From: an uncultured Candidatus Saccharibacteria bacterium
Lineage (GTDB): Bacteria; Patescibacteriota; Minisyncoccia; UBA6257; GWB1-50-10
Direction: 5' to 3'
Assembly (NCBI GenBank): GCA_964365955.1
Contig: CAYISA010000001.1
Coordinates: 18,607-82,606 of the forward strand
Length of the DNA: 64,000 nt
Shown here: piece after piece, positions 16,774 to 48,023 of the stretch
Layout: every line of letters begins with the position of its first letter
Numbering within the stretch: the first letter of the stretch is position 1
Notes under the pieces: generated by a model
The model's input: the letters and a program-made list of their open reading frames with translations, nothing else
Told to the model about the DNA's origin: nothing
Databases searched by the model: none
Made by a program: the position numbers and the translations under genes

Positions 16774-17439
16774 ATGCATCATTACAAGGTCGATTTAACT
16801 TTTCCTTTATTGATCATGTTAAAAACACAAGAAAAGAGGGGGTTTACGCTTATTGAGCTGATTATTTCCATCGCGATTTTGGCAATTTTAGTCGCGGTTC
16901 TGGTAGTCGCAATCAACCCCGCTGAACAGCTGGCACGCTCCCGAGACGCAAAACGCGTTGCAGACCTTGATGCATTGAAATCTGCTTTAAACTTGTATCT
17001 TGCGACCGCCACGACAACCGTAAACTTGGATGGACAGGGAACCGCGAATACGCTCTGTTCCGGTGGAGGCGGGGCCGACACTATTTTCTTTAATAGCACA
17101 GCCGGAGCGACAACCAGCGGTGCATATGACGTGGGTCATACGTGGGTTGCGAAATCAGCAAGCTCGGGCCAGGCTATCGGAGCGTCGGGCTGGTTACCGG
17201 CACGTTTTGATTGGACGCCCGGAGGTTCTCCGATCTCCAACCTTCCGCTTGATCCAACAACTCCGGGAGGAGATTCCACCTATTTCTATTCCTATGCGTG
17301 TGAATCAACCAACAAACAATTTAAGTTGACCGCAAGACTCGAAAGCACTTATTTTGCGAGCGATCTGAACCTTGATGGAAATGACGGCGGAGCAACCTCC
17401 TCACTTTACGAAGTGGGAAGCAATCTTACGACGCTCTAA
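16774..17439 (+). CDS. type IV pilin (candidate major pilin of cluster 1)
   Basis: KRGFTLIELIISIAILAILVAVLV class III prepilin signal. Probable start MLKTQEKRGF at 16819. Strong terminator follows. Confidence 0.8.
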   Translation: MHHYKVDLTFPLLIMLKTQEKRGFTLIELIISIAILAILVAVLVVAINPAEQLARSRDAKRVADLDALKSALNLYLATATTTVNLDGQGTANTLCSGGGGADTIFFNSTAGATTSGAYDVGHTWVAKSASSGQAIGASGWLPARFDWTPGGSPISNLPLDPTTPGGDSTYFYSYACESTNKQFKLTARLESTYFASDLNLDGNDGGATSSLYEVGSNLTTL

Positions 17440-17519: not shown

Positions 17520-19229
17520 ATGGCAATCACGCTCGGAAAGATAACAGATCTACTTGTAAAAGAGGGGGTGGTAAAAAAGGAAGAGGTTGCGACATTAGAA
17601 GAAGAAGCGAAACAGTTGGGCGCGACATTTTCGCGGTACTTAATCTCGCAGGGACGGCTTACCGAAAAACGGCTGAATGAAATCATCAGTACGTTTTTGA
17701 ATGTCCCTATTTTTGACATTAAGGAGCGAGCACTGAAGCCGGAATTTGTGGAACTGCTTCCGGAAGCGATCGCGCGCCAGCGTCAACTGCTTATTGTAGA
17801 CGCCGATCAGAAGAAAAAAACGTACTCGGTCGCGATGACGGACCCCACGGACATCGACACTCTTACCTTTCTTGCAGAATACCTGAACGGAACGATTGAC
17901 CCTTACCTCATTTCGTCCGAGGATCTGCGATTCGGGTTTCGTATTTACAAAAAAAAGTCCTCCGCCGAATTCCAAAAAATCATCAATGAGCGCATCAAAG
18001 AGCTCCGCACAACACTGAAGCGCGGTGCGGAAGGGAACATCCTCGAAAATGTTCCGCTGGTTCAACTTTTTGACGCGGTCATGGATTATGCGGCTATTTT
18101 GGATGCCTCGGATATTTATTTTCAGCCCGAAGAAGAACTCTTAAGAATCCGCTTCCGTGTGGATGGACTCTTGCGGGATATTTTTATAACGGATAAGGCG
18201 ATTAACGACGGAATTATTGCGCGCGCCAAGACACTTTCGGCACTGCGTATTGACGAACACGTGAAACCCCAGGACGGACGCTTCCGGTTCCGAACGAGCG
18301 ATACCGATCTGGATATCCGCGTTGCCATCATGCCGACATTTTTTGGCGAGAAACTGACACTCCGCCTTTTGGCGGGATCGCAATCGTTCCTCACCTTTGA
18401 AGAATTGGGTGTGAGCGATGTGATGGCTCAAAAACTCTATCAGACCGTCAAGCGCCCCTACGGAATGCTCTTGAGCGCCGGTCCTACCGGCTCCGGAAAG
18501 ACGACAACTATTTACAGTATTCTGACTCTTCTGAACCGACCCGAGGTTCATATCGCAACCATCGAAGATCCTATTGAATACATGATTCCGAACGTAAGCC
18601 AAACACAGGTGAATGTACAGGCAAATATTACGTTTGCGTCCGGGCTCCGCGCGCTCCTACGCCACAGTCCCGACGTTATTTTGATCGGTGAAACGCGCGA
18701 CGCGGAAACGGCCTCTATTTCAATTAATGCGGCGCTGACCGGCCATCTTTTGATTTCGAGCATCCACACCAATAATGCCCCGAGCGCGGTGGTGCGACTC
18801 CTGGACCTTGGCATTCCGTCTTTCCTTATAGCATCTACTTTGAACGCGGTGGTGGCACAACGCCTGGGAAGAAAAATCTGCCAGAACTGCATTGAGTCGT
18901 ATCCCACGCCTCCCAGCATCGCGAAACAGATACAAGAAGAGTTTGCGCGAGCGGGTAAAAAGAATCCGCCTCCCAAAAAACTCTACCGCGGAAAAGGATG
19001 CACAATCTGCGATAACACGGGGTACAAGGGTCGCACTGGTATTTTCGAAATTTTGGTCGTGAGCGAGAAAATTCGCGACATCATCGCAGGAACCCATTTC
19101 ACGCTCGACTCGCTTTCGGAAATGGCACGCGCGGAAGGAATGACCACGATGTTTGAAGACGGACTCGAAAAAGTGGAGCGCGGCGTTACCACTATTGAAG
19201 AACTATTCCGCATCATGAGCGCGGAATAA
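17520..19229 (+). CDS. pilB: type IV pilus assembly ATPase PilB/GspE (copy 1)
   Basis: N-terminal GspII-like domain, Walker A LSAGPTGSGKTTT, Asp/His boxes, tetra-Cys (CQNC...CTIC). 569 aa. Confidence 0.9.
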   Translation: MAITLGKITDLLVKEGVVKKEEVATLEEEAKQLGATFSRYLISQGRLTEKRLNEIISTFLNVPIFDIKERALKPEFVELLPEAIARQRQLLIVDADQKKKTYSVAMTDPTDIDTLTFLAEYLNGTIDPYLISSEDLRFGFRIYKKKSSAEFQKIINERIKELRTTLKRGAEGNILENVPLVQLFDAVMDYAAILDASDIYFQPEEELLRIRFRVDGLLRDIFITDKAINDGIIARAKTLSALRIDEHVKPQDGRFRFRTSDTDLDIRVAIMPTFFGEKLTLRLLAGSQSFLTFEELGVSDVMAQKLYQTVKRPYGMLLSAGPTGSGKTTTIYSILTLLNRPEVHIATIEDPIEYMIPNVSQTQVNVQANITFASGLRALLRHSPDVILIGETRDAETASISINAALTGHLLISSIHTNNAPSAVVRLLDLGIPSFLIASTLNAVVAQRLGRKICQNCIESYPTPPSIAKQIQEEFARAGKKNPPPKKLYRGKGCTICDNTGYKGRTGIFEILVVSEKIRDIIAGTHFTLDSLSEMARAEGMTTMFEDGLEKVERGVTTIEELFRIMSAE

Positions 19230-19235: not shown

Positions 19236-20459
19236 ATGGCACGCTTTTCTTACGTCGCTCAAAATTCTGAAAATGAAATTAGCAAGGGAGTGATTGAGGC
19301 TCCCACGCACAGTGAAGCTGTACGTGTTTTGGTACGCAAGGGCCTTTCCCCTATTAAACTGGAGGTGTTTAAGGACGCGGGTGAAAAAAATAAAACGCTC
19401 CCCATTACTATTTCATTCCGGAAAAATCTGACGCTCTTTGACCAAATCAATATCCTGCGCCACCTAGGAACAATCCTGAACACCGGCACTGATCTTCTCT
19501 CGGGTCTCGATATCATCGCGAAAGACGCTATCAACCCATTGGTACAGAAAATACTTTACGATGTAAAAGAGCGCGTGGGACGCGGTGAGCGTTTTTCTGA
19601 CGCGATCGAAAAATGGAAGAGCCAGTTCAGCCCCATTTTTGTAAGTCTTGTACGCGCCGGAGAATCATCTGGAACGCTTCCAAAAACGCTGATTAGCTAC
19701 GCGCAAGAACTCCGAAAAGACTATTCGTTTTTCAGAAAACTTCGGAGCGCGGTAACTTATCCGGTTATTCTGGTGGTCGCGGTTGTTGCAATGATTCTTA
19801 TTCTTATCTCTATTGTTGTGCCGCGTTTAAAACAGCTTTTTTCCACTACGCGCGCCGCACCTCCCTTTTATACGAAATTTTTTATCGCTGTATCGGATTT
19901 TTGGCTCGCTCATCTATGGACGATCCTGGGAATTTTGGCAATTTGCGCGGTCGCGTTGATGATTGCGTTTCGTAAAAAAACGCTTCGTGAGAAATTAATG
20001 GAAATTCTTTGGTATTTCCCGGTCCTAAAAAAAATAAACAGGAATCTTATTCTTTCCCGATTCACTAAAACGATTGCGAACCTGATTGATGCGGGATTTT
20101 CTCTAAAAGAAGCTCTCCACACAACCGAAGAAGTAGTGGGACCGAAACACAGAAAAGCGCTCAAAGAAATTGCGGAAGCAAAACTAGCAAAAGGTGTGGA
20201 ATTTTCTGAGGCACTAAAATCCTACGAAGATCTTTTTCCGCGTATTTTAGTGAGCGTGATAGCAACCGGCGAAAAAAGTGGACAGCTTTCTTCCGTGCTT
20301 CTCCAGATGGGCGAGTTCTATGAGGAAGAAGTTTTGTATTCATTAGAACTCTTCTTGACGCTCATTGAACCATTGCTTCTTGTCTTTGTGGGTCTGGTTG
20401 TGGGGCTAATGGCTGCATCTATTATTTCTCCGATTTACAGCTTAATCGGCCACTTCTAA
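19236..20459 (+). CDS. pilC: type IV pilus platform protein PilC/GspF (copy 1)
   Basis: Two GspF repeats, 3 TM helices, 407 aa, immediately downstream of pilB. Confidence 0.85.
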   Translation: MARFSYVAQNSENEISKGVIEAPTHSEAVRVLVRKGLSPIKLEVFKDAGEKNKTLPITISFRKNLTLFDQINILRHLGTILNTGTDLLSGLDIIAKDAINPLVQKILYDVKERVGRGERFSDAIEKWKSQFSPIFVSLVRAGESSGTLPKTLISYAQELRKDYSFFRKLRSAVTYPVILVVAVVAMILILISIVVPRLKQLFSTTRAAPPFYTKFFIAVSDFWLAHLWTILGILAICAVALMIAFRKKTLREKLMEILWYFPVLKKINRNLILSRFTKTIANLIDAGFSLKEALHTTEEVVGPKHRKALKEIAEAKLAKGVEFSEALKSYEDLFPRILVSVIATGEKSGQLSSVLLQMGEFYEEEVLYSLELFLTLIEPLLLVFVGLVVGLMAASIISPIYSLIGHF

Positions 20460-20461: not shown

Positions 20462-20932
20462 TTACTCCACTGAAACTTTCCCTTCTGCCGAGACGGAAAC
20501 GGTTTTTGTTTTAGAGGCATCCGTGGCAAGTTTAAACTGCACCGATGTGCCGGTTGCAATCGTTCCGCTCAATTTTGTAAATAGGATCTCCGTGCTGCTC
20601 CCCTGCGAGAGCGTCGCGTAACGCACCAACGTTCCAAGATTAAAAACGGTGCTTGATGCACTTACATAAGTGGATCCTGGGAAAATCGCATAAAAAGGTG
20701 TTGTAGTGGCATTCTCAAAATGAACACCCCAAGCCAAACCGTCGACGCCAGCAAAGGCGCGACCGCGTGCTTCTCGCACTCTGGTTGCCACTCCCTGCGC
20801 TTCCGACTCAAGAGAACCGATTTCCTGATTTTTGAACATCAGAAGAGCAGCACTCCCCGCAATGCCGAGAAACAGCACAACAATAATAAGCTCGATGAGC
20901 GAAAAACCCGCTTTCTGATTGCGCGTGTGCAT
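20462..20932 (-). CDS. pseudopilin (GspH/FimT-like)
   Basis: QKAGFSLIELIIVVLFLGIAG class III signal. Start taken at MHTRNQ (20932); the track ORF extends to 21055 with an unlikely extension. Confidence 0.7.
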   Translation of the reverse strand: MHTRNQKAGFSLIELIIVVLFLGIAGSAALLMFKNQEIGSLESEAQGVATRVREARGRAFAGVDGLAWGVHFENATTTPFYAIFPGSTYVSASSTVFNLGTLVRYATLSQGSSTEILFTKLSGTIATGTSVQFKLATDASKTKTVSVSAEGKVSVE

Positions 20933-21136: not shown

Positions 21137-21724
21137 TTATTCTCCCCGCGTAAAGATAGTACCTGAAAATGCCATCCGAAAATTTCCTCCCGATGGGGCA
21201 AACGACCATTGCCGAATCTGGATCGTGGTCTCCAATCCTTCCACCGCAATAAGAAAATTACTAAGCGCAGTGATGTTTCCTTCCGCTTTGGCGGAAAATT
21301 CGAATCCCCCACCTCCGGGGACAACCCCCGGGAGTTCAACACCCAGAGAAATTTCAAGCGGAAACCCGTACTGGAGCGCCAACGCCCGCACTAAAGGAAA
21401 AATCTTCGTGGGCACGTCAATGGAAAGAGGGAGGGATTTTTCGAGCTCGCCGCGCAGAGCGTTCGCAATCGGACGTTTTTTATTCAACTCCGCAATCTCG
21501 TCGAATTGTTCTAAAACGCGGGCGAATTCACCTTTCGCATTATCCGCCTGTGCCACTTCTTTTTTGATCAGCAAAGAAAGCACAACAAGCGCGACCGCAG
21601 AGAGCGTCAGAATCATTCCGAAGATCACCAGCGTAAATCCAACGCCTTGTCCGAATTTTTGTGTTCCTGGCTGTTCCGGCTTCGGTATGGTTTCTGTTTT
21701 TTTTATATTTTTTTCGTTTTCCAT
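21137..21724 (-). CDS. PilO-like pilus assembly protein
   Basis: Single N-terminal TM (FTLVIFGMILTLSAVALVVLSLLI), then a coiled-coil and a C-terminal domain. Directly downstream of the pilM-pilN fusion. Confidence 0.55.
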   Translation of the reverse strand: MENEKNIKKTETIPKPEQPGTQKFGQGVGFTLVIFGMILTLSAVALVVLSLLIKKEVAQADNAKGEFARVLEQFDEIAELNKKRPIANALRGELEKSLPLSIDVPTKIFPLVRALALQYGFPLEISLGVELPGVVPGGGGFEFSAKAEGNITALSNFLIAVEGLETTIQIRQWSFAPSGGNFRMAFSGTIFTRGE

Positions 21725-23208: not shown

Positions 23209-23601
23209 CTACTGGTTGTTTTTTGAAATAGTTGTGATGACCCCATTGCTATCGATTGTTATGGACGCACGCAACGAACGTTTAATCGTCCCCAAGGGTT
23301 TCGCTACGGTAGAGGTTGCCACCACAACAACCGGGTTTCCCTGCGTTACCGAGATATCGGTCGTGGAACCGTCCGACTCTGTAAGCGTATAACTTCCAGC
23401 GTAATCTTTATTACGCGCGAGCTTCAGTGTTGCGTCTTGTATACCCGTTTCCGCAAGCGCCTGTGCTACTTCTGCCGTTCGTTCTGAAAATCCTGTAAAT
23501 ACCGAGGTGCCGCTTTGGATGCCCATTAAGATGCTTACGCTCAAAAGAAAAAGCGTGATAACAAGAACGGTGGCAAGCGATACGATGCCGCGATTCTTCA
23601 T
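23209..23601 (-). CDS. pilus-associated minor pilin-like protein (PilX/GspK-like, tentative)
   Basis: N-terminal hydrophobic anchor GIVSLATVLVITLFLLSVSILMGI, small Thr-rich body. Start overlaps the stop of the upstream pseudopilin by 4 nt. Confidence 0.45.
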   Translation of the reverse strand: MKNRGIVSLATVLVITLFLLSVSILMGIQSGTSVFTGFSERTAEVAQALAETGIQDATLKLARNKDYAGSYTLTESDGSTTDISVTQGNPVVVVATSTVAKPLGTIKRSLRASITIDSNGVITTISKNNQ

Positions 23602-24095
23602 AGGGAAAGCGCTGCTGTCTCCAATGTGTAGAGCGATTTTGTATCAGCGGCGCTCCCTTCATTATACCCTCCCGTGATGCGGATTTGAACGGATGAGGTC
23701 GCAGTTCCTTGGGAACTGGTGTTGTTAAGTTTTGTAAAAGAAAGTGCGGTTACATAAATTGTGGAAGGAGTGACGGCGACAGCTGTACCGGTCCCTTCCT
23801 GCATCATCAGAGCTCCGCTTGCAAGCGAAAACACCGTGGGATTTTTGGTACTGTCGGACATCTTAAGATTCAGCGTCGTCGAGGCACCGTTGATATCCGT
23901 CGCCGTATAAACCTTATCAACCATCTGTTGTAATGCCTGCTGCACTCCGCTTTGCGCTTCCGTTAACCGATTGGTGGTGTCTTTGGTGCGAAGCGCAAAA
24001 TCGAACACGGTGGCGCCGAGGGTCGCGACAATCGCAAAGATGACGATATAAATCATCATTTCAATCAGCGTAAATCCCGATCGCTTATTTTGCAT
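23598..24095 (-). CDS. pseudopilin (PilW/GspJ-like)
   Basis: KRSGFTLIEMMIYIVIFAIVATLG class III signal. 165 aa. Confidence 0.75.
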   Translation of the reverse strand: MQNKRSGFTLIEMMIYIVIFAIVATLGATVFDFALRTKDTTNRLTEAQSGVQQALQQMVDKVYTATDINGASTTLNLKMSDSTKNPTVFSLASGALMMQEGTGTAVAVTPSTIYVTALSFTKLNNTSSQGTATSSVQIRITGGYNEGSAADTKSLYTLETAALSL

Positions 24096-27000
24096 AATTT
24101 AAAATAATATCCGTGACCGTGGGTGTTGTGGAACTGCTTGTGGTCTCTAAAAACACCTTGTACCGAATATACCGCTTGTTCTGCTGACACACTGCTTTTA
24201 GTTCCACCGCGGTGTTGGGTTCGCTGGTGCCGGTCGGCGGATAATAGGAATTCGAATCGCAGGCGACGGATGGGTTATTCGAACCTGATCCATTCCATGC
24301 GGTATAGGTCCACGGACTCGATGTGGTATCCGACCCCGCAAACTGGAATTTTACCGTTGTGTTGGTTGGGCGCGTCCCCTGCCAGGTAATGGAGTTCGGC
24401 GCCGTGCCGCTTGCCACCGCCGTATCGTAAATAACGGAGGTGAGTGATGAAGAAGTGGCGTACCCCTGCGAAACCGTTAATGTCGTCACGCTTGCCGCGG
24501 TGCTGGTGGGACCATTTCCGTAACTATTCACTCCCATCACTTTATACCAGTAGGTTGTGCTTTGGGTAAGCCCCGTATCGGTGGAAGATGTAATCGTGGT
24601 CGAGGCCACTAGAACATAGATTCCTCCGGAGCTTGTTGAACGGAAAAGATTGTACGAAGTCGTGCTGGATGCCGCGGTCCAGTTTACCACCACGGAAACG
24701 CCCGTTACATACGGAAATGTTGGCGTTCCCGGAGTTCCCGGAAGCGGCCAGATCCAACAACTATTCCCTCCGCTATCCAAAGAATCATCTGTCACGGAGA
24801 TACTTCCGCTTCCGCACGCGTCTGAATCTTTAACGTCCGTCGACGAAACAATTTTGGCGCCCGCAACCGTTAACAACCACGGTGATCCCGCAGAAGAACT
24901 CCTTACCCCAACCCGCGATGTGGTCGCCTGTCCGTTCCAATTTAAGCTATTAAAAGTGTACGTACTACCCGCGTTGAAACGCACGGTGGTAGATGCGGTC
25001 ACAATCGTGGATGTCGCAACGGTCGTTGCGTCAGCCGTCAAGCGGATTGCCGGAGCCGCAAGTGTTCCGGAATTGTTCGAAAATGCAAGATGATTGAACG
25101 CGGAAGTTCCTACCTCCATCGGTCCCATGCTCCCTGTAAGCGTTTGTGCGGACGTTCCGTTGAATGTCACCTGCCCGCTATTGTGCGTAAAGGTGCCATT
25201 ATTCGTGTAATTACCTCCTATTGAAATAGTCCTGACAGCGTTCGCCTTGAATGTGGAACTTGTGGCGATAAGCATCGCGCCCGTCACACTGATCGTTGTA
25301 TTATTCGGACTTGCGTCTACTACTCCCGTATGCGTTCCGTCTCCTGCCGTAAGTTGCCCCCCGACAATAAAAGTACCAGCCGCAAATTGATGCGCGGAAG
25401 TACTGCTCGGCATAACATCTAGATTGTAATAGGTAGCGACGGTAATCGTTGTGACAGCAGCGCCGTTATATTTTACCTTTCCTGTACCTGCGGAAAACGC
25501 CAAACTCACGGGCGATTCGTTGATCACAAAAGGTGTGCCGCTTGAAGCAAAGGTAATAGTGTAGCTCGATCCAGCAAGCGTATTAGTGCCGTTTGAAGAA
25601 TCATTGATAGTGAGAATGTTGTTGACCGTCGTGTCGCCGGAAAATGTATATGTGGTCGTGGCGGTCGACGTTCCGACCTGTAAATTGTAGTAGGGGTTTG
25701 CTGTAACCATCGTGCTTGTCGTTTGGCCTGCATATACAACCGTGCTCGTGCCCGCTTGGAACGTGATTGTGTCCGATACAACCATCGGCGTCCCCGTACC
25801 AGAAAATTGTATTGTGCGGCCGCGTGCGTAAATATCGGCGCTCGGATTCATCGTCCATACTTTTTTCACGACAAGATTTCCAGTCCCGCCGCTTCCAAGA
25901 TATAACCTACTCCCTGCTTCATGATTGCCTCCGCAACTGGCACACGTGGTAGTTAAATTATTGAACGTCCAATCATTCGAGCCGCTTGTGGTGCCGAGTG
26001 TTCCACCCGTGGTATAAAACGTTACCGTGTGATCTACATTGGTTAAATTCACCGTACCACAGGTAGCTCCACAGGTGATAGAACTGGTTGTGGCATTCCC
26101 TATTAATTGAATATTCGCGCTTCCGTTTGAATTATCCAGCGTCCCATTCGCGACCAGAAGCGAATCAATCACTGCGGTCGAAGTTGCAAAGCTCCATCCG
26201 CCCCCCGACCCGTTGAACACCACGGTTGGAAGACTTACTTGAAAGCCCGCCGCAAGCGCTCCCGCGTTGATCATGTGCCCTGTTGAGGTGGCACCAAACG
26301 TCACGGTGCCGGTGCTCGCGCCTCCCTGTCCGTTGTTCAAATAATCGCTATTGAACGCAAAGGTTCCTCCTCCCGCAAAGGTAGCGGTTCCGGTTGCCAC
26401 TGTAAAAAGATTATTGACGGTGGAAGGACTTTGAAGCGCGAATACTTCGCTTGCATTATTCAGCGTCAGTTTATAATAGGTGGTTGAAGCCACTAATGTA
26501 TTCCCCACAGTATAATTTCCGGTAAATTGTACGGTGGAGGTCACAGCATTAAAAGTTCCGGAGAGTAAAAATGGCGTGGCTACATTCCCGACATTCGAGA
26601 GCGTCCATGTCTTTCCGCCCGCCGAAAACGTATGCCCCGCAGAAACAGTAAGCACACCGCTCACTGTCATCGCGCCCGCGCCTGTTGATGTGGTCGTCTG
26701 CGAGGAACCGTTTACGGTAAGGCTGGAAAAAGTCCAGTTGGTTGCACCACCTAAACTTCCGGCGCCGCTGATCGTTGCTGTCCCCCCCGTAAGTGTGACA
26801 GTTCCTGCACCGGTGATATCGCCTCCATTCACGGTAAAATTTGAGGTCCCCGCAAGCGTTCCGGCCGTCACGGTAACATCATTTGAAACCGTTGCGGCAC
26901 CTCCCAGCGTGTACGTTGCGGTACCGTTGGTGTCCAAATTCCAATAGGTTGCGGCAGTGATCGTTGTTGCGGAAGATCCACGATAACTGAACGTAGAACT

Positions 27001-29652
27001 TCCGGGAGTTGACGTCGCTCCGGTCGGGGCAATCACAAACGGCGTTCCTGACCCCAATAAATAAATTGATCCCGTTCCGCCATTTAACGTATTGGTGCCG
27101 GTCGTGGAGCTTGCAACGGTTATCGTGTTTTGGATGGTAGAATATCCGCCGGTTCCAACTCGCAACGTATAGGTAGTACTTCCGGTAGATGTTCCTACAA
27201 AAAGATCCCAATAGGTTGCGGCACCGATATTCGTACTGGTAGTGATTCCGATGTAGCGGACGGTGCTGCTTGCCGCATTAAAGACTCCGGGGTTTGGAAT
27301 CTCTCCACCCGGATATCCCTGGACCACGAAGGGAGACCCCGTGCCGGTTACGGTAATCGTCTTCGTAGAAGTCGCACTTAACGTTGCGCTTCCGCCGCCT
27401 CCGCTTGTCATGGTGATACTCGTCGCTACGATATCGCTATTCAATTGAACCGTATAGGGAGTGGATCCGTTTGTATTAATACTGATAATCCCTAAATCTT
27501 GGAGCGCCGGATTGCTGTCTTGTAATGTTTTGGTACCGCCTGGACTTAAGGTGATCGTCCCGGTTCCTTTTGTGTAGGTGAGTTGGTTGGTTCCACAAAC
27601 ACTCGTACAATCTCCGACGATAAAATTCCCCTTCACCGTGATGCTCGGATTATACGATGATGCGTCTACAGTTGCCGCGGCATCACGAAATAATCTAAAA
27701 TCACCGTTCACTGTAATTGTCTGGCCCGTTGTTGTAGCTAAATAATAAATATTTGTACTCTGGGGTTTTAAAGACAAATTAAAATAACTTGTCGCGGGGA
27801 TATCCGTAGAACCATTTCCGCTAAAAGCAACGGTGCCTGTTGTTGATGGAAGAGCCCCATAGCTTGTGATCTGAAGGGGCGTACTAATAATTCTTCCAAT
27901 CCCCGAAATCGTAAGTGTATAAGGCCCGGGTGAAAATGTATCAGTCGCACTTGAACCGGAGTTCCCAATTGTGACTCGATTTGTAACCGTTGTATCGCCT
28001 CCCAAGGTATATGTAACCGCTGAAGCATCTGCGCTTACACCAACTTGGAGGCCGTAATAAGCATCCGAAACAGCGATTGTGGTGGCGGTTGTCGCTGTAT
28101 AACTGACAGTCCCTGTTCCTCCACTTAGTGTTCCCTTGCTTGTAATTACAAAAGGCGTCCCCGAACTCGAAAGTGTAAGCGTGGCAATACTTAAGGCAAG
28201 CGTATCGGAGTTTCCCGAACCGGCATTCCCAACCGTCACGACACCTGCGGCAGTTGCGTTCCCGCCTAACGTAAAAGTGACCGCCGACGAGTCAGCTGTC
28301 GTCCCAACTCCAAAATTATAGTACGCGACCGCGGCAAGCGTGACAGAAGACGTGGCGGTGTAGTTAATCGTACTGGTACCGATTGTGAACGTGCCCGAAA
28401 CACAAAATGGTATCACGGTGTTCAATGCGCCCGTGCACGTGGCGGATGTCCCCGGGCGATTGAGTGTTATAGTATTCCCGTCGGGGGTAAACGTTCCAAT
28501 GACATACAGGGCACCCACGTTCACCGCTCCGCCGGGTTGGAATGTTTTCCCAGAAGCCACAATCACTTTCGCGGATGTTGCATTCAACACCCCTCCTGAA
28601 ACCGTAAAGGGAATATCCGTATCACTCACACTGTCATACGTTCCGACATTCGCATTAGTGATAGGTCCGGAGTCCTCATGCCGCAAAATCACGCGCCCCC
28701 TATAGACATCAATTCCGCTTAAATTCGTTCCTGAATAACGCGTTACGGTCGCGCCCACCCGCGTGGCACTTCCGTTGTCCATATAGACAGTGATCACGGT
28801 GCTTGTCGAGGGCTGTGTCATAGTAACGGTGTAGGTTCCTGGTGCTCCCGCGCTTGTAGAAGACGCCACACTCCCCCCTACTACCACTTTAACCGTGGAA
28901 GATGTCGCTGTAACCCCTTCGTCTTGATAAATCGTACCCGCAATTGTGATCGAAATCGCCGGTGGCGTGTAGGTAATTGTTGCATACACTTTAGAGAGTT
29001 GGACGTAAATTGAGTTCGAGTAAGAGCCACCGTCTCCATCATCGCAGGTTCCGTCGTCCGGGATCGTAAGCCCCACCTCAAGCGTTGAGGTGGTTCCTTT
29101 TACATAACTAATGGAGTGCGACTGGGTACTTGATGTAAATGTATCCGTCATCGTGATCGCGCTTCCGAAATCTGTCGAGGCGCCGTCCAAAACCCGGACG
29201 GATTTTGCAGTCGGATAAACGCTAATGGTCGGAGCGCTTCCCCCCGCACAAACGGAGTACTCATCAATTGCCGCATTTGCCGAAAACGTAATATCGATCG
29301 CGGTAATTGTGGAACCGACCGGAATATTGGTCCAGTCCGTTGTTGATGTAGAGAGTTTAAATGTCTGCCGCGTATTAATGATCTTACTAAAAACCGTAGT
29401 CGTATCATTGTTGTCGTTCACTTTTATATAGCAAACATTCGCGCTGCAATCCTTCAGTGGGAGTATCTGGTATGCCCACGATGCCGAGTCGTTGGTACCA
29501 TCCGCTACAGGATGGATCGCACCCGTTGTTGTTCCGTGCGCAATATACGGAATACCGCCCAAAAAAAGAAAAATGGCGGCGACAAAAAAAAATGTTCTCC
29601 GCGTTGAAGTTGCAAGCATTTTAAAGATTATAGCACACTTTTTATCCTTCAT
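24085..29652 (-). CDS. giant surface protein (1855 aa) encoded in the pilus operon; putative pilus-associated adhesin with FN3-like domain and conserved C-terminal module
   Basis: N-terminal signal/TM (FFFVAAIFLFLGGIPYIAHG). Extreme Thr/Ser/Gly content. FN3-like segment (PGTPGTPTFPYVTGVSVVVNWTAAS...YWYKVMGVNSYGNGP). C-terminus NKRYIRYKVFLETTSSSTTPTVTDIILNYAK is homologous to the C-terminus of CDS 9116..10117. The gene start overlaps the stop of pseudopilin 23598..24095 by 11 nt (24085-24095). Confidence 0.75.
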   Translation of the reverse strand: MKDKKCAIIFKMLATSTRRTFFFVAAIFLFLGGIPYIAHGTTTGAIHPVADGTNDSASWAYQILPLKDCSANVCYIKVNDNNDTTTVFSKIINTRQTFKLSTSTTDWTNIPVGSTITAIDITFSANAAIDEYSVCAGGSAPTISVYPTAKSVRVLDGASTDFGSAITMTDTFTSSTQSHSISYVKGTTSTLEVGLTIPDDGTCDDGDGGSYSNSIYVQLSKVYATITYTPPAISITIAGTIYQDEGVTATSSTVKVVVGGSVASSTSAGAPGTYTVTMTQPSTSTVITVYMDNGSATRVGATVTRYSGTNLSGIDVYRGRVILRHEDSGPITNANVGTYDSVSDTDIPFTVSGGVLNATSAKVIVASGKTFQPGGAVNVGALYVIGTFTPDGNTITLNRPGTSATCTGALNTVIPFCVSGTFTIGTSTINYTATSSVTLAAVAYYNFGVGTTADSSAVTFTLGGNATAAGVVTVGNAGSGNSDTLALSIATLTLSSSGTPFVITSKGTLSGGTGTVSYTATTATTIAVSDAYYGLQVGVSADASAVTYTLGGDTTVTNRVTIGNSGSSATDTFSPGPYTLTISGIGRIISTPLQITSYGALPSTTGTVAFSGNGSTDIPATSYFNLSLKPQSTNIYYLATTTGQTITVNGDFRLFRDAAATVDASSYNPSITVKGNFIVGDCTSVCGTNQLTYTKGTGTITLSPGGTKTLQDSNPALQDLGIISINTNGSTPYTVQLNSDIVATSITMTSGGGGSATLSATSTKTITVTGTGSPFVVQGYPGGEIPNPGVFNAASSTVRYIGITTSTNIGAATYWDLFVGTSTGSTTYTLRVGTGGYSTIQNTITVASSTTGTNTLNGGTGSIYLLGSGTPFVIAPTGATSTPGSSTFSYRGSSATTITAATYWNLDTNGTATYTLGGAATVSNDVTVTAGTLAGTSNFTVNGGDITGAGTVTLTGGTATISGAGSLGGATNWTFSSLTVNGSSQTTTSTGAGAMTVSGVLTVSAGHTFSAGGKTWTLSNVGNVATPFLLSGTFNAVTSTVQFTGNYTVGNTLVASTTYYKLTLNNASEVFALQSPSTVNNLFTVATGTATFAGGGTFAFNSDYLNNGQGGASTGTVTFGATSTGHMINAGALAAGFQVSLPTVVFNGSGGGWSFATSTAVIDSLLVANGTLDNSNGSANIQLIGNATTSSITCGATCGTVNLTNVDHTVTFYTTGGTLGTTSGSNDWTFNNLTTTCASCGGNHEAGSRLYLGSGGTGNLVVKKVWTMNPSADIYARGRTIQFSGTGTPMVVSDTITFQAGTSTVVYAGQTTSTMVTANPYYNLQVGTSTATTTYTFSGDTTVNNILTINDSSNGTNTLAGSSYTITFASSGTPFVINESPVSLAFSAGTGKVKYNGAAVTTITVATYYNLDVMPSSTSAHQFAAGTFIVGGQLTAGDGTHTGVVDASPNNTTISVTGAMLIATSSTFKANAVRTISIGGNYTNNGTFTHNSGQVTFNGTSAQTLTGSMGPMEVGTSAFNHLAFSNNSGTLAAPAIRLTADATTVATSTIVTASTTVRFNAGSTYTFNSLNWNGQATTSRVGVRSSSAGSPWLLTVAGAKIVSSTDVKDSDACGSGSISVTDDSLDSGGNSCWIWPLPGTPGTPTFPYVTGVSVVVNWTAASSTTSYNLFRSTSSGGIYVLVASTTITSSTDTGLTQSTTYWYKVMGVNSYGNGPTSTAASVTTLTVSQGYATSSSLTSVIYDTAVASGTAPNSITWQGTRPTNTTVKFQFAGSDTTSSPWTYTAWNGSGSNNPSVACDSNSYYPPTGTSEPNTAVELKAVCQQNKRYIRYKVFLETTSSSTTPTVTDIILNYAK

Positions 29653-29756: not shown

Positions 29757-32516
29757 ATGAAACGCTTTGTTGTTTTTCTTGCTGGTTTGTTTTTCCTTAC
29801 ATCCCTTGTCGCAACCGGCCAATCGTTTGTTCCGACGCAAGGACCGTACGGAAAAGATGTGTTTTCGATTGCTCGCGGAACTGGCGGCCGCATATTTGCA
29901 GGAGCGGAAGATAATCTGTACCGTTTCCGCGATACCGCATGGGCCAATGTTCTTGTTTACAATGACCTCCCGGTTATCTCCAACACCAAACCGATGGCAA
30001 GTTTGAACGGAGAAGTTATTGTTTATGCAAGTTCTCGGTTCATGTCGTATCGAACTTTATATGTGTCAAAAGATGGCGGTGCCACATGGAATACAGAATT
30101 CGCGAGCGGATTCCCGGACGGTCCCCCCCCTTTGACGTGCCTTGCGTTTAACATAGAAGGGCAACTATTTACAGGGACACTAAGACGAGCATTTGCCGAT
30201 ACTGCCGTTGGTGGCGGCATCTGGCGATCACTTGATACTGCGAAGACATGGGAACGAGTCCGTGATACTACAAGCGGTCTAGGGCTTGATACTATTTCCG
30301 TCTATTCACTTACGGTTCGTGGAAACACGATCTTTGTGGGTGCGCAAAGCGGGATCTTTCTCTCAACCGATGCCGGCGCTACCTGGACGCATCATTTTTC
30401 TGATGTGTTTCCGGGGCATATTTATTCCGTTGCGATTGATAGTTCCGGGGACCTCTTCTTGAGCACGGATTATAATTACGGCAACGGAGAAGATATCTAC
30501 CGTTCCACCGACAACGGGACAACCTGGACGGGAATGGGACTAGGCGCTCACACGACCGTGCTTGCCGTGCATCCAAATGGCACTGTTTTTGGCGGTTCGC
30601 GTGAAAACCTCGGCGTTCTTCGATCCACAAACAATGGCATCACATGGGACGCCTCAAATCCGGCTATCGGGAACACCGCCGCAGGTGTACCAAAAATTGC
30701 ATCCATCGAATTCGGCGAGGACGGCAGTGTCTATGTAGGCGCTTTGCTCGATGGAGTATTCCGCTCAACGGATAATGGAACGACATGGAAACAGATAGGA
30801 ATTCCGGCGCAAACCTCTATGGTGGCGATTCCGGACACAGTTGCTCCGCCTCCTCTGATAAGCAAGCTTTTTACGGAATCGGTCTATCTTGATTCCGTTC
30901 CAAGCGCACTTCTTGCAGTCGCAAAAGGGTATCCCTATCAATCTGTCGATGGTGTTCGCTGGGAACGGTTTGAACTTCCTGGTTTCTCTGGATTTGTACA
31001 AACCGCAATCGTTTCACCAGGAAATTCATTTATGGCAACTCTTGGTGGAGGCATTTTCCGGTCACTGGATGGCGGATACACATGGGAACGATTAATATCT
31101 TTCCCAGCGCCAACTCAAAGAATTTATGCCATGGCAATGAGTCATGGGAATAAATTATTTGCAAGCGGTGATTTTGCTGAAGGATTGTATCGTTCTAGTG
31201 ATTTTGGAAATACGTGGGAACAGGTTTATCCATTAGTTGGATTAATTACTTCACTTGCTACGTCCCCACTCAATGATTCTTTAATCTTCGCTGGGGCGGA
31301 TGGAGTTCATCGAAGTACCGATGGTGGAACTTCGTGGGAACTGACTGGCCTTTCGGGCATCGGAATCACATCGCTCTCGGTTGACGCGGGTGGCATGGTC
31401 TACGCCGGAAATCAGGATGGCATCTATCGCTCAACCAACAACGGTACTACCTGGGAACCCCCAAGTGCGGAGTCGAGAGCACTGCGCGGAGTTCAAGGTG
31501 TAGGACCGACGAACGTGCTCTCGATTGCAAGCAAACACGTAAGTGTCTTTGCGGGAACCGAAACGTCGGGACTATATCTTTCCACGGATCAGGGAACTGG
31601 ATGGGAACCGATTAATGCGGGGCTCACCAGTTCCAAAATCCCTTCCGTTACGATCACGCGACGCGGTTATGTTTTTGCCGCAACTGACAAAGGCGTTTTC
31701 CGTTCTCTGTCACCGATTGCGGTAGCAGAGTACACATACGCGCTAACGGACGGATGGAATATGGTTTCACTTCCCGTGCGTCCAGACGATTCCCGGAAGA
31801 CATCGGTCTTCCCGTCGGCACAGTCCAAAGCGTTTGCCTATGACGGCGGTTATAACACCGAAGACGTTATGCAACGTGGCTCCGGCTATTGGGTAAAACA
31901 TCCAAGCGCAGGCATTGCTATATTAGGCACTCCGGTGGAACGTGAAACGGTGAGCGTAAGACAGGGCTGGAACATGATCGGCTCAATTACATCGCCTGTT
32001 CCCGTTGCAACCATCGGAAGCATCCCCGGTGGACTCGTCGTCTCGAATTTCTATGGGTGGAAGGGTGTCTCTCAAGTCTACGACACAGCAGACACCATCG
32101 GCCCCGGAAAAGCGTACTGGGTTAGAGCGTCGGCAAACGGCAAGTTGATACTTGCAAAAACGCCAGCAGCACAACCCTTCGCAATCGTGATTGTGCCCAC
32201 AGACGAAGCTCCGCCGCCACCTCCGGGATATAACGGAAAAGATATTCCAAAGAGCTTCATGCTTTATGGAAACTATCCAAATCCTTGGAACCCAACAACG
32301 GTGATCAAATTTGATCTCCCAGAAAATGCATCCGTGACTTTAAAAGTCTGGAATGTGTTGGGACAGGAAGTTCTGAAGGTGATGGACCATGTTCCGTATG
32401 AAGCGGGTCGCTATGAAATCACACTTCATTCCGACGAGCTGCCGAGTGGCATCTATTTCTACACGCTTCAGGCGGGAAATCATCTTGCAACCAAAAAGAT
32501 GATCCTTCTGAAGTAA
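29757..32516 (+). CDS. secreted BNR/Asp-box repeat (sialidase/Ycf48-like beta-propeller) protein with T9SS-type C-terminal sorting domain
   Basis: Signal peptide MKRFVVFLAGLFFLTSLVATGQS. At least eight S-x-D-x-G-x-T-W Asp-box motifs (STDAGATW, STDNGTTW, SLDGGYTW, STDGGTSW...). C-terminus NYPNPWNPTTVIKFDLPENASVTLKVWNVLGQEVLKV...SGIYFYTLQAGNHLATKKMILLK is a T9SS CTD. Confidence 0.8.
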   Translation: MKRFVVFLAGLFFLTSLVATGQSFVPTQGPYGKDVFSIARGTGGRIFAGAEDNLYRFRDTAWANVLVYNDLPVISNTKPMASLNGEVIVYASSRFMSYRTLYVSKDGGATWNTEFASGFPDGPPPLTCLAFNIEGQLFTGTLRRAFADTAVGGGIWRSLDTAKTWERVRDTTSGLGLDTISVYSLTVRGNTIFVGAQSGIFLSTDAGATWTHHFSDVFPGHIYSVAIDSSGDLFLSTDYNYGNGEDIYRSTDNGTTWTGMGLGAHTTVLAVHPNGTVFGGSRENLGVLRSTNNGITWDASNPAIGNTAAGVPKIASIEFGEDGSVYVGALLDGVFRSTDNGTTWKQIGIPAQTSMVAIPDTVAPPPLISKLFTESVYLDSVPSALLAVAKGYPYQSVDGVRWERFELPGFSGFVQTAIVSPGNSFMATLGGGIFRSLDGGYTWERLISFPAPTQRIYAMAMSHGNKLFASGDFAEGLYRSSDFGNTWEQVYPLVGLITSLATSPLNDSLIFAGADGVHRSTDGGTSWELTGLSGIGITSLSVDAGGMVYAGNQDGIYRSTNNGTTWEPPSAESRALRGVQGVGPTNVLSIASKHVSVFAGTETSGLYLSTDQGTGWEPINAGLTSSKIPSVTITRRGYVFAATDKGVFRSLSPIAVAEYTYALTDGWNMVSLPVRPDDSRKTSVFPSAQSKAFAYDGGYNTEDVMQRGSGYWVKHPSAGIAILGTPVERETVSVRQGWNMIGSITSPVPVATIGSIPGGLVVSNFYGWKGVSQVYDTADTIGPGKAYWVRASANGKLILAKTPAAQPFAIVIVPTDEAPPPPPGYNGKDIPKSFMLYGNYPNPWNPTTVIKFDLPENASVTLKVWNVLGQEVLKVMDHVPYEAGRYEITLHSDELPSGIYFYTLQAGNHLATKKMILLK

Positions 32517-44079: not shown

Positions 44080-45129
44080 TTAGAAAATTACTTCTTTAAG
44101 TTTGTGCGTATCCCCGTGCTGCAATAACCCACGATAGGAGTTGATCGTCTCACGGCGCGGATATCCTTTCAGATTTCGCACTATCCTCCGTTTCGTGATG
44201 GTGCGAATCTGCCGATGATGCGGGAAATGAATCCATCCGAGAAAATCGACCCCGGAGGCATAAGACTCAATGGAAACTTTCTTCTCGTGTAACGAGAGGC
44301 GAAGGTGATCATGGAGGAATGCCCGAATCTTGAGTAATAACACCACGAGATAATCCTTGTTATCCGATAGGATCAGAAAATCATCGGCATAGCGAATATA
44401 ATATTTCCCCTTCAATTCCTGTTTTATAAACATATCAAATTCATGCATATAAATGTTTGCGAGGAGCTGGGATGTGAGATTCCCCAAGGGAAGTCCAAGG
44501 CCAGACCGCACCATATGAAAGCTTGAAATGACTTGTCCTAAGAGCCAAAGAATATCTCGATCTCCTATATTTCGTTCAATGATACGGGTCAAAATTTTTT
44601 GATCCACGCTTGCAAAGAATCTCTTAATATCACACTTTAGGACGTAGCAGGTGCGCGTATTATTCTTTGATACTTTGCGGGCAAATGAGTCGAAGCGTTC
44701 CAGAGCCTTATGAATCCCCTTGTCTTCTCGGCAGGCACAGGAATCGTAGATGAATCGCTCTTCAAAATAAGGATAGAGAGCCCGATAAAGTACGTGATGG
44801 AGAAAGCGGTCCCGCACAGAAGCCTTATGAATAGTCCGTCGTTTCGGGTCCGAGACGTGGAATTCGGAATAGGGTCCATGAACATATGTTTTGTAAAGAA
44901 GGTCTCGGTGAAGCGACACAAGATTGTCTGAGAGGCATGCCTCGAATCCCGCCACATCCTTTTTGTGTCGTTTACCGCAGAGAAACCGTTCCCACGTTGC
45001 AAGGAGATTTTCTATGGTTATGATATCTTGGTAAGTATGAATAATCGTAGTAATAGTGCTGTACCCCCCCGCACAAGGGAAACTCCGCTTGTACTTTTGA
45101 AGGTAAAAGAAACATACCGAACGTGGCAT
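44080..45129 (-). CDS. diversity-generating retroelement reverse transcriptase
   Basis: RT motifs incl. YADDFLIL (RT5) and GLPLGNLTSQLLANIYM (RT4 with the DGR-type [ILV]GxxxSQ signature). N-terminus IITIENLLATWERF...GKRHKKD is like DGR RTs. ~349 aa; start chosen at MPRSV (45129), which has a GAGGTG Shine-Dalgarno sequence; the track ORF runs to 45144. Confidence 0.85.
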   Translation of the reverse strand: MPRSVCFFYLQKYKRSFPCAGGYSTITTIIHTYQDIITIENLLATWERFLCGKRHKKDVAGFEACLSDNLVSLHRDLLYKTYVHGPYSEFHVSDPKRRTIHKASVRDRFLHHVLYRALYPYFEERFIYDSCACREDKGIHKALERFDSFARKVSKNNTRTCYVLKCDIKRFFASVDQKILTRIIERNIGDRDILWLLGQVISSFHMVRSGLGLPLGNLTSQLLANIYMHEFDMFIKQELKGKYYIRYADDFLILSDNKDYLVVLLLKIRAFLHDHLRLSLHEKKVSIESYASGVDFLGWIHFPHHRQIRTITKRRIVRNLKGYPRRETINSYRGLLQHGDTHKLKEVIF

Positions 45130-45435
45130 ACCCACCTCGCGCATATTTCTCGCATTGATCGGAATACGATAGGAATTCGTATTGACGAGACGTTCCTTTC
45201 TCTCTTGGAGCTTACGTTCCGAGCGTGTTTTGCGGCGGATAAATTTGAGAAGCTATCCATGGTGTCAAATGCTATTGCGAAATCTGACATCCTCAAATTC
45301 TTCCTGCAACTTGCATGGGAGGGAAAGACACTGGATCACGCGCTCTACGGAAAACTGCTTCTCGATTTAGATGAAATCGGCCGGATGCTCGGAGGGTGGA
45401 AACGAACCTTGTCTAGCAAAACTCCCGCGAAATAG
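45037..45435 (+). CDS. Avd-like accessory variability determinant (four-helix-bundle, basic C-terminus), encoded antisense to the RT 5' end
   Basis: C-terminus LLLDLDEIGRMLGGWKRTLSSKTPAK plus predicted helices (ETYRTWHTHLAHI / IRIDETFLSLLELTFRA / LSMVSNAIAKSDILKFFLQLAWE), as far as I recall Avd proteins. Start uncertain: the track ORF begins at 44965; 45037 is the first ATG compatible with a four-helix length. Overlaps the RT start on the opposite strand by ~90 nt. Confidence 0.5.
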   Translation: MNNRSNSAVPPRTRETPLVLLKVKETYRTWHTHLAHISRIDRNTIGIRIDETFLSLLELTFRACFAADKFEKLSMVSNAIAKSDILKFFLQLAWEGKTLDHALYGKLLLDLDEIGRMLGGWKRTLSSKTPAK

Positions 45436-45904: not shown

Positions 45905-46573
45905 CTACTCACCGTCGCAGAAACAGAGCACGCAGTAGTCAGAACCCCAGTCACGCTCGAAGTCGCCGAGGCTGAACTCGCAGTCACCGACCGAGTAGCG
46001 GAACACGCGCGGCACCCTGTGGTCACCGCCGGCGTCAACCCAGAGAGCGTTCTTCTCGTCGAAGGAGACGTAGAATTTTCCTTTCGGAAGTTCATCTTTC
46101 TTCTCCTGATAGACGAGGGAGGCACCCTGAGCACCGACGAGAATCGCGTTCTGAGACCGCAAAAGGTTCATGTGATCTTCGGAGGTCACGCTACCCTTCT
46201 TGATTCCGAAGACTTTGACCTTGTAGGTCTTCCCGGGAACCAGTTGGGTGGTCGCCTTGGCGAAGTGTGAGTCCGTGATGTCGGTGTTGTAATAGTAGAA
46301 GCCCTTGCGGTACTTCTGTTCGAAGGTCGCAAGCTGGGTTCCATGGACATAGTCCTTGGGAACCGTAAGCGCGAACTCTTTGAGGTGCTCGTAGCGCGGA
46401 TCGATGAGGTTGGCCCCGTCAAACTTTCCCTCAATCGCATTTTGAAGATGCAGTTTGAGGAGATGCGGATTGAAGGGGTACCCACTCGGTTGGCGGAGTT
46501 GACGGGCGATTTTAAAAATCTGCCCGGTAATCGACTCGTATAAGTCGCCTGCGACAATCGGTTTCGTTGCCAT
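45905..46573 (-). CDS. DGR target protein 1 (VR at C-terminus)
   Basis: 222 aa from MATKPIV (AAAGGAA Shine-Dalgarno sequence). Paralogue of target 2. C-terminal 38 aa (GDHRVPRVFRYSVGDCEFSLGDFERDWGSDYCVLCFCDGE) is encoded by VR1. Confidence 0.75.
   Translation of the reverse strand: MATKPIVAGDLYESITGQIFKIARQLRQPSGYPFNPHLLKLHLQNAIEGKFDGANLIDPRYEHLKEFALTVPKDYVHGTQLATFEQKYRKGFYYYNTDITDSHFAKATTQLVPGKTYKVKVFGIKKGSVTSEDHMNLLRSQNAILVGAQGASLVYQEKKDELPKGKFYVSFDEKNALWVDAGGDHRVPRVFRYSVGDCEFSLGDFERDWGSDYCVLCFCDGE
45912..46035 (-). repeat. DGR variable repeat VR1
   Basis: Aligns with the TR over ~122 bp. ~23 differences, all at TR T (plus strand) = A (coding strand) except the boundary position. Confidence 0.85.
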
Positions 46574-46738
46574 GACGATATTCCTTTCTGTTAATGAACG
46601 CTTGGAGACTGCCAAGTCAGGTGTAAGGGTATCTTACGGTCTAAAGAGTAGTATAGTAATTATATATTGTCAAGCATAAAGATTCGAATCAACGGGCCTA
46701 TCCCCTACCAAAACCCCTACAAATGGAGGGTAAATCGA

Positions 46739-47683: not shown

Positions 47684-48023
47684 ATGTGACTCCTTCCTAG
47701 GAATTGTGAGGGAAACAGTGTATTTAGTTCGTAAGGTTTCTGACACCAGGTTAGCATATTGTTTCTATTTTGTCAAATCTATGTAGCAAAAGCATATAGA
47801 ACAGAGGTATTTAGCTGCTCTAGTATTCCTTACTATCTCTGTAAAATCTTTGGAAATAACGGAAAATGTGGTAGGAATAATCAAGTTAATACAATCGCTC
47901 GTAGGTCTGGAATATAAATTGATGTATCATTTCTCCTCTCAAATGCGGTTTTAACATCGTCCACTAGCCCGCGCAAGTGAAAAGAAATAAAAATCCCCGC
48001 GTAAAACGCGGAGATTATTTCCG

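Follow-up and report, generated by a model that had tools for sequence, protein, structure and literature searches.

What is a secreted protein of 1855 residues doing at the head of a minor-pilin operon, and could it be the part of a type IV pilus (T4P) that recognizes a host cell? The question is raised by a stretch of 64,000 nucleotides from contig CAYISA010000001.1 of an uncultured Candidatus Saccharibacteria bacterium (the window, below), in which a giant open reading frame (ORF) adjoins pilin genes. Patescibacteria, to which the organism belongs, account for a large part of bacterial diversity, and those in cultivation live attached to host cells; to our knowledge, their means of recognizing hosts are understood mainly from a few cultivated Saccharibacteria. 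The explanation that we favor, with a confidence of about one half, is that the giant is a host-binding, non-pilin adhesin held by a constant C-terminal module (C-module) on a second type IV pilus system that lacks PilT, here termed cluster B, filling a role like that of PilY1 or MshQ from outside that family.

The giant lies on the minus strand, with its start at 29652 and its stop at 24085. Upstream of it there is solely a divergent gene (29757..32516, plus strand) with BNR/sortilin and Por_Secre_tail domains, and a promoter and terminator scan over 20.3-30.0 kb returned background level. A preliminary description, prepared from the letters alone, had reported an 1855-residue frame rich in Thr, Ser and Gly; the frame is confirmed, and uninterrupted, and so is the composition, T 18.7%, S 12.0% and G 11.6%, with charged residues very scarce. 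Fragmentation of the gene by frameshifts, which that description had considered, is contradicted by a partial protein (P0001) from an NCBI 'Patescibacteria group bacterium' metagenome-assembled genome (MAG), 100% identical to the giant over 1775 aa, and by full-length homologues at 42-57% identity. The giant is therefore a genuine conserved gene, with no assembly or frameshift artefact. The 11-nt overlap with the neighboring pseudopilin also proved real, but its direction had been misread: it is the stop of the giant that overlaps the start of the pilin, and the giant precedes the pilin-like genes instead of following them. On the reverse complement, the giant ends AAT TAT GCA AAA TAA (N-Y-A-K-stop), and the next gene begins ATG CAA AAT AAG (M-Q-N-K). 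Two of the three genes that had been called pilin-like are indeed prepilins, one resembling GspJ/ComGF (J-like) and one resembling GspH (H-like), the latter at the far end of the operon, whereas the middle one encodes a GspK/PilX-like protein (K-like) without a GFxxxE motif.

Further loci were drawn from genome and metagenome scans with an alignment of the C-module, and 15 distinct loci of trans type were examined in all, in which the module ends a secreted protein that is not itself a pilin (the window, L001, L002, L003, L004, L005, L006, L007, L008, L010, L012, L013, L014, L019 and L020). The gene order that the preliminary description had proposed to seek in relatives recurs in every one of them: a secreted protein ending in an …[IV][IL]LNYA/S module is followed by a J-like pilin, with the K-like gene and PilM/N coming next wherever the contig reaches far enough. 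Five close relatives, with identities of 57-42%, reproduce the series of giant, J-like pilin (162-177 aa), K-like protein (130-147 aa), PilM/N and a gene for 189-196 aa; genes for PilC, PilB and a major pilin lie close by. The 11-nt overlap is kept in six loci, the window and these five relatives, down to 42% identity and with the pattern AAyTATGCnnnnTrA. Five other trans-type loci (L008, L012, L014, L019 and L020) show a gap of 11-75 nt between the stop of the module protein and the start of the J-like gene, and in four the junction is occupied exactly by a small mobile-looking gene or an insert of ~440-500 nt (L004/L015, L007/L011, L010, L013), so that it looks like a recurrent insertion hotspot. 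The inserts include one of the 23S_rRNA_IVP four-helix-bundle type and a 132-aa ORF without an assigned family. Chance adjacency of the giant and the pilins is excluded by this conservation. The divergent BNR/sortilin neighbor is likewise conserved, in L001 and L006.

The protein in the giant's slot changes almost entirely from locus to locus. It is an 817-aa Gly-rich protein with FN3 domains in L008 (Candidatus Brennerbacteria), a 1365-aa protein with repeats of another kind in L012, yet another body in L014, a 286-aa Cys-rich protein in L019 and a 1494-aa solenoid in L020; the bodies are unrelated and span 286-2660 aa, the Thr/Ser solenoids among them 1494-2660 aa. The arrangement holds at 15 of 15 loci of trans type, and the place just before the J-like pilin gene is therefore that of a hypervariable secreted protein with a constant end. 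Where surface systems are modular, it is usually the constant portion that attaches to the machinery, and ligand binding falls to the variable one. A reverse test, starting from J-like pilins, led at 44% identity to an upstream gene that again encodes a module-bearing giant (L020), and this locus and the two more distant ones reached in the same way (L021 and L022) all follow the H-I-J-K gene order. In L012 (~4430-5560), an insertion within the J-like pilin contains an LVGWWPFDEG… motif reminiscent, from the motif alone, of LamG/ConA-like domains; a minor pilin can apparently also be functionalized.

The C-module defines a family of its own. An exhaustive search with a hidden Markov model profile collected 953 representative clusters at E<=1e-3, 499 of them at E<=1e-10, with the giant's own cluster at 6.5e-60; a word-indexed protein search yielded just 4 fragments. 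Members share an all-beta region of ~115-125 aa at the extreme C-terminus with the motifs RY[ILF]RYK and [IV][IVL]N[YW][AS]x, and the giant has all of these traits; the preliminary description had already noted a conserved C-terminal module in it. Among the top 148 representatives, whose median length is 336 aa, the module ends <=3 residues from the C-terminus in 139; a G/QSL[IV]E start is seen in at least 29 of the 148, and the N-terminus is hydrophobic and of Sec type in about 70. No Pfam match covers the module region in any member scanned. For the giant's own module, Pfam and NCBIfam gave no match, a profile search of PDB sequences gave nothing below E=0.27, and a Foldseek search with the C-terminal model matched nothing but FN3 and tandem-FN3 structures. 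In the literature searched, of which coverage was incomplete, no description of the C-module or of the giant-plus-J-pilin arrangement in Patescibacteria was found.

Evidence that ties the module to pili comes from distant relatives, in which it sits on pilins in cis. L016/L017 read PilB, PilC, H-like pilin, a 502-aa module protein, a 142-aa gene, K-like and PilM/N, and L018 follows the same order; no J-like gene is present in these loci. The 502-aa protein is a true prepilin, with an RRG/QSLVEILVAL start, an N_methyl match of 22.1 bits and the module at its end. In L022, reached through a J-like pilin at 28% identity, the gene in the gap between H and J codes for 1003 aa, opening with a class-III N-terminus (DG/FSLVEAL) and closing with a weakly matching module (iE 1.6e-4), and in L021, at 32% identity, the corresponding slot holds a 362-aa modular pilin with FN3. 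By the gene order in these distant relatives, the giant's slot corresponds to the place that GspI/PilV takes in the canonical H-I-J-K series. Since the module sits on true prepilins, both in these loci and among the top representatives with a G/QSL[IV]E start, module-bearing proteins are pilus subunits in relatives. A split-gene origin, with the J-like pilin as the detached pilin domain of a cis-type module protein, was considered and dropped, hhalign finding similarity only in the generic N-terminal helix.

Examination of the giant's anatomy supports export without a pilin part. It begins with the hydrophobic signal sequence that had been noted earlier (…RRTFFFVAAIFLFLGGIPYIAHG/TTTG, predicted cleavage context …FFFVAAIFLFLGGIPYIAHG/T), and the signal peptides of its homologues finish in AHA, ARA or VQA, which are of AxA type. 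The giant has no N_methyl match in Pfam, and a G/FxxxE regular-expression scan of the window is positive in eight other ORFs and not in the giant. Two AlphaFold2 (AF2) models were made, covering residues 38-700 and 1238-1855, with mean predicted local distance difference test (pLDDT) values of 84 and 82. The model shows residues 38-67 as disordered, and hence no alpha-1 helix of pilin type behind the signal peptide. The next domain, N1, was found by BLAST domain mapping in the closest clade only. Its Foldseek matches are all weak (E 3e-4 to 0.08) and comprise the receptor-binding domain of phage lambda gpJ, a phage receptor-binding protein, CBM4 and TNF/C1q-like folds, a mere hint of a jelly-roll or receptor-binding-like fold. 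The N2 module behind it is found again in dozens of further Patescibacteria proteins of 1,500-3,200 aa, many of which have more than one copy. Homologues P0011, P0014 and P0023 carry up to three copies per giant, a recurrence that points to a super-repeat in which N2 is combined with solenoid segments.

The body, previously described as low-complexity and beta-rich, is not disordered sequence. It is built of repeats of ~85-88 aa with YYNL and GTPFVI motifs (residues 422-505, 510-597, 791-876, 882-968, 1298-1379 and 1386-1472, together with degenerate copies) and closes with a capping region, residues 1530-1635, common to many giants. The AF2 model is ordered, with pLDDT >90, and shows short strands spaced at ~7-10 residues, or about three in each ~25-29 residues, a pattern that, read from the DSSP assignment and not from coordinates, predicts a beta-solenoid. 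With ~27 residues in each turn and a rise of 4.8 A, we estimate a rod length of ~20-25 nm. The FN3 domain near the C-terminus is confirmed by PDB phmmer (3.3e-6) and by Foldseek, which aligns single FN3 domains with a template modelling score of ~0.8 and a root-mean-square deviation of ~2 A; the Pfam fn3 match (E=0.16) stays below the cutoff. The C-module behind it is all-beta, and its last strand is formed by residues 1845-1852, TDIILNYA. Searches of the giant against Pfam and NCBIfam at E up to 10 gave nothing beyond the weak fn3 match and DUF6406. No PilY1/PilC beta-propeller was detected by Pfam or NCBIfam, the AF2 model of residues 1238-1855 comprising solenoid, FN3 and a small sandwich; no two-partner secretion (TPS) domain, autotransporter beta-barrel or pectate-lyase-type signature appeared in Pfam, nor was a Por_Secre_tail, the C-terminal domain (CTD) of the type IX secretion system (T9SS), seen in the Pfam scan. 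As to other anchors, neither an LPXTG motif nor a C-terminal transmembrane segment was found.

The operon headed by the giant belongs to cluster B, in which the major pilin, PilB and PilC genes on the plus strand converge on the minus-strand series of giant, J-like, K-like, PilM/N, PilO-like, 65-aa and H-like genes. The K-like gene keeps its place after J in all loci, and its label is an inference from architecture and position. The window also contains a complete type IVa pilus (T4aP) cluster with two small ORFs of PilN/O size without Pfam matches, two PilA-like pilins and four minor pilins in H-I-J-K order. Since this second cluster is separate and complete, cluster B is an extra, specialized and divergent system; its PilB and PilC are 34% and 27% identical to those of the other cluster, and its J-like pilin aligns with the J-like pilin there over 140 aa. 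The premise of a secretin-less system is consistent with the data, no Secretin-domain match occurring in any of the ~50 window ORFs scanned against Pfam, and with the assignment of the organism to the Patescibacteria. Table 1 collects the features.

Table 1. Features of the giant, of cluster B and of the remaining window, with the basis of each assignment. Coordinates are window positions, except for the junction inserts, which are given on their own loci.
Feature	Coordinates	Strand	Basis or remark
Giant ORF, 1855 aa + stop	24085..29652	-	Uninterrupted ORF; first gene of the operon
Overlap of giant stop and pilin start, 11 nt (ATGCAAAATAA)	24085-24095	-	Sequence reading
Sec-type signal peptide, residues 1-40	29533..29652	-	Sequence reading; n-region RR, hydrophobic core, AHG/T; no class-III GFxxxE
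N1, long-stranded beta-sandwich (jelly-roll-like), residues ~41-235	28948..29532	-	BLAST domain mapping, AF2
N2 module, ~145-175 aa, residues 236-410	28423..28947	-	AF2 pLDDT 80-97
Predicted beta-solenoid body (~1,250 aa), residues 411-1635	24748..28422	-	Repeats, AF2
FN3 domain, residues 1636-1730	24463..24747	-	Pfam, PDB phmmer, Foldseek
C-module, residues 1731-1855, ending …TDIILNYAK (stop)	24088..24462	-	Homologue alignment, profile search
J-like prepilin (GspJ/ComGF/PilW-like), 165 aa, RSG/FTLIEM	23598..24095	-	N_methyl 1.8e-9; weak gspJ and ComGF matches
K-like protein (GspK/PilX/ComGG-like), 130 aa	23209..23601	-	N-terminal hydrophobic helix without GFxxxE, AQALAETGIQDA helix; weak DUF2509 match
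PilM-like N-terminal domain fused to membrane/PilN-like part (PilM/N), 491 aa	21731..23206	-	Profile matches; kept in all related loci
Single-transmembrane protein, 195 aa, PilO-like by position	21137..21724	-	Synteny; label is an inference
Single-transmembrane protein, 65 aa	20934..21131	-	Conserved in relatives
H-like prepilin (GspH-like), 156 aa, KAG/FSLIEL	20462..20932	-	gspH 2.2e-8, below cutoff
Prepilin, 221 aa, candidate major pilin of cluster B	16774..17439	+	Kept upstream of PilB in relatives
PilB-type assembly ATPase (T2SSE + MshEN)	17520..19229	+	Pfam
PilC platform protein (T2SSF)	19236..20459	+	Pfam
Second, complete T4aP cluster	52660-63572	-	PilM, PilB, PilT, PilC, PilD, pilins
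Orphan module protein, 333 aa	9116..10117	+	Module E=1.7e-24; signal peptide, WNDxxGWIxF repeats, …ITDIILNWSR (stop)
Junction inserts	L004 7209-7484; L007 1056-1454; L010 4192-~4600; L013 ~790-1230		Between module-protein stop and J start
Reverse transcriptase of a diversity-generating retroelement (DGR)	44080..45144	-	DGR region 44080-47746
NlpC/P60 and Peptidase_C39-like genes, adjacent	42839-43815	+	Just upstream of the DGR region
Large ORF, 1262 aa	4765-8553	-	Signal peptide, no Pfam match

Known tip proteins provide the frame in which these observations can be read. PilC/PilY1 is held on the tip complex by its last ~10 residues, which add a strand to a PilK-family minor pilin, and the unrelated MshQ is predicted to donate a C-terminal strand to a PilK homologue in the same way; a minor pilin can also provide the strand in cis, in some cases behind a large insertion, CpaL being an example (Ellison et al., PMC13533445). 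Like the giant, PilY1/PilC of Pseudomonas, Neisseria and Myxococcus is a large non-pilin that carries a Sec signal and shares its locus with the core minor pilins, and it is proposed to sit on the minor-pilin tip complex in dependence on its extreme C-terminus (PMC13533445; PMC7541494). The giant differs from it in lacking a detected beta-propeller or von Willebrand factor A domain, in having a beta-solenoid body, in being encoded before the J-like pilin and not after the K gene, and in belonging to a monoderm-like Patescibacterium without a secretin, in a system without its own PilT or a recognizable GspI-like pilin. MshQ of the Vibrio MSHA system, a non-PilY1 protein of ~1200 aa syntenic with I/J/K minor pilins, implies that unrelated large proteins can fill a PilY1-like role; it has no detectable sequence relationship to the giant, whose C-module is a ~115-125-aa family of its own, and its gene too follows the K gene.

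In its biology, the giant is closest to PilX1 and PilX2 of TM7x. Cultivated Saccharibacteria have two T4P systems, and PilX1 and PilX2, which carry accessory domains and lack a PilD signal, are candidate tip adhesins; PilX2, of the second system, is required for host binding (PMC12206443), its loss abolishing attachment but leaving the filaments intact. The superphylum, the pair of T4P systems and the pilus-locus proteins with accessory C-terminal domains and no PilD signal are shared with the window. By their description, however, the TM7x proteins are minor pilins of lollipop type that bear a jelly-roll or propeller domain, whereas the giant is about ten times the size of its own operon's minor pilins (130-165 aa), lacks a pilin helix and is built on a solenoid. 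Through its relatives, the giant is close also to modular pilins such as Streptococcus sanguinis PilB/PilC and to CpaL/TadG of Tad systems: the cis-type proteins of L016, L018 and L022 and P0103 are likewise class-III pilins with grafted domains and the C-module last, matching the CpaL pattern of pilin domain, large insertion and C-terminal strand, whereas the giant itself lost, or never had, the pilin part. More distant likenesses are the giants of Omnitrophota, very large surface proteins beside pseudopilin systems, and the Myxococcus Kil pilus, in which one pilus bears interchangeable, variable tip complexes (PMC12075869); both come from another phylum and another filament class, with no shared domain shown. 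FHA/TpsA, autotransporter passengers and phage tailspikes resemble the giant in having a long, repeat-built beta-solenoid rod with a terminal binding domain. The giant lacks the TPS, autotransporter and pectate-lyase-type signatures of such proteins, and there is no outer membrane for their mode of export or anchoring, none being expected in Patescibacteria. A pilus-tip adhesin is in itself an unsurprising idea; it becomes concrete and testable through the constant plug-in module, the series of cis and trans forms and the heads, with their size and their variability.

In the mechanism that we infer, the giant would be exported via Sec and its signal peptide cleaved. The C-module, with its FN3 neighbor, would then dock on the minor-pilin initiation complex, the partner being the J-like and/or the K-like subunit, which the 11-nt overlap would provide in coupled amounts. 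The contact may be made by beta-sheet augmentation through the conserved terminal strand …DIILNYA; an …[IV][IL]LNY[AS]x sequence is conserved at the extreme C-terminus of module proteins, and the strictly terminal placement of the module implies that a free C-terminus should matter, as it does for PilC, PilY1 and MshQ. The occurrence of one C-terminal module in cis on pilins and in trans on Sec proteins fits, by analogy, the cis/trans logic of PilC/PilY1 and CpaL. Polymerization of the pilus would carry the complex to the tip of the cluster-B filament, from which the ~1,250-aa solenoid would project as a rigid rod, placing the variable, jelly-roll-like N-terminal domain at its far end to bind a ligand on the host-cell surface. 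The proposal of the preliminary description, a pilus-presented adhesin analogous to PilY1/PilC, thus survives in its core, with the synteny and overlap, the constant C-module on unrelated bodies and the module on true pilins in its favor; its gene order and polarity were reversed, and no beta-propeller, the defining sequence feature of PilY1/PilC, was detected. Several observations weigh against it. The model of the C-module has moderate confidence (pLDDT 50-77), and in this monomer model the last strand packs inside the module itself. For an adhesive role of N1, the evidence consists of the weak fold matches. The gene order differs from that of PilY1 and MshQ, both encoded after the K gene; cluster B has no recognizable GspI-like pilin and neither a PilT nor a PilD of its own; and the J-like pilin and the cis-type pilin domains share only the N-terminal helix in hhalign comparisons. 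Finally, the orphan module protein adjoins CorA and other unrelated genes and no pilin, meaning that the module is not exclusive to pilin operons.

This orphan, lying far from the pilin genes, also belongs to the observations that another explanation would accommodate, namely that the C-module is a general domain for C-terminal surface anchoring or sorting and the giant an envelope fibril or secretion substrate away from any pilus tip. The module would then bind the wall or S-layer, or be recognized by cluster B acting, without PilT, as the pseudopilus of a type II secretion system (T2SS). The module does occur on many small Sec-type proteins and strictly at the C-terminus, as do the T9SS CTD and other sorting domains, cluster B lacks PilT, and giant genes of Omnitrophota also lie beside T2SS/T4P-like systems with pseudopilins (10.1101/2023.11.21.568195). 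We nevertheless regard it as rather unlikely, being hard to square with a module that ends true class-III pilins of the same operon slot. Moreover, T2SS substrates are not normally coupled one to one in translation to a minor pseudopilin, and T2SS cargo uses no strand addition and must be released (PMC13533445).

The topology could instead be the reverse of the one proposed, with the C-module as a conserved, lectin-like, ligand-binding end of the kind seen in bimodular pilins, the giant held N-terminally, for example by an uncleaved signal anchor, the solenoid turning the C-module outward, and the link to pilins amounting to co-regulation only. Short cis-type proteins composed of a pilin domain and the module (e.g. 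P0130, 335 aa) invite this interpretation, as do their likeness to the modular pilins of Streptococcus sanguinis (PMC8179133) and to TM7x PilX1 with its jelly-roll C-domain, and the conserved Cys pair and conserved polar residues of the module. It is made improbable, more so than anchoring or sorting, by the N-terminal regions of the slot occupants, which are unrelated and all carry AxA-type cleavage motifs, leaving no conserved anchor there, by the lack of any reason for a lectin domain to end <=3 residues from the C-terminus in 94% of cases, and by the general expectation that the variable end is the likelier specificity end. The least credible of the alternatives, to which we give very little weight, makes the giant an assembly factor only, which would prime or license the polymerization of cluster B in the manner of PilY1 initiation and take no part in adhesion, its body being structural and spanning, for instance, the wall or S-layer. 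The giant does head the minor-pilin operon, its gene is coupled to that of the J-like pilin, and PilC/PilY1 license assembly via the C-terminus, but body variability on the scale seen here, 286-2660 aa with unrelated folds, is typical of diversifying, ligand-facing selection and not of core factors.

If the giant is such a pilus-held adhesin, the constant C-module beside a J-like pilin would be a searchable genetic signature of host-recognition hardware in uncultivated Parcubacteria-type lineages, with the variable bodies as the specificity determinants, and the C-terminal holding of a non-pilin adhesin on minor pilins would extend from proteobacterial T4aP and MSHA to secretin-less systems. 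The C-module and the J/K pilins form a small protein pair suited to in-vitro work. A broader reading, which we offer tentatively, is that the C-module may be an undescribed plug-in domain of Patescibacteria, by which exchangeable cargo is loaded on the tip complex of a type IV filament that is dedicated to this use and has no PilT, in cis when fused to a PilV/GspI-type pilin and in trans when carried by a Sec-secreted protein. One machine would then show many heads, including orphans such as that of the window, with the 1855-aa solenoid among the longest, and host recognition in these episymbionts would be modular and swappable.

Por_Secre_tail domains, for C-terminal sorting by T9SS, occur in two proteins, the divergent neighbor of the giant and the product of 3276..4724 (plus strand); the organism is not expected to have an outer membrane or T9SS. 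The DGR has its template repeat at ~45452-45574 and variable repeats at 45913-46035 and 46840-46962, which lie at the 3' ends of two minus-strand ORFs (45905..46615 and 46832..47746), and nearly all differences between the repeats fall on plus-strand T, equivalent to A on the coding strand. Because a bAvd/23S_rRNA_IVP-like gene follows the L004 homologue, a link between the DGR and the giant was examined; it was rejected: that gene is the small insertion between giant and pilin, and the DGR targets two other genes. No repeat family joins the DGR repeats, confined to 45.4-47.0 kb, to 24-30 kb. The large ORF at the left of the window contains a perfect 300-nt direct repeat (6701-7000 and 7679-7978), either a recent internal duplication or an assembly issue.

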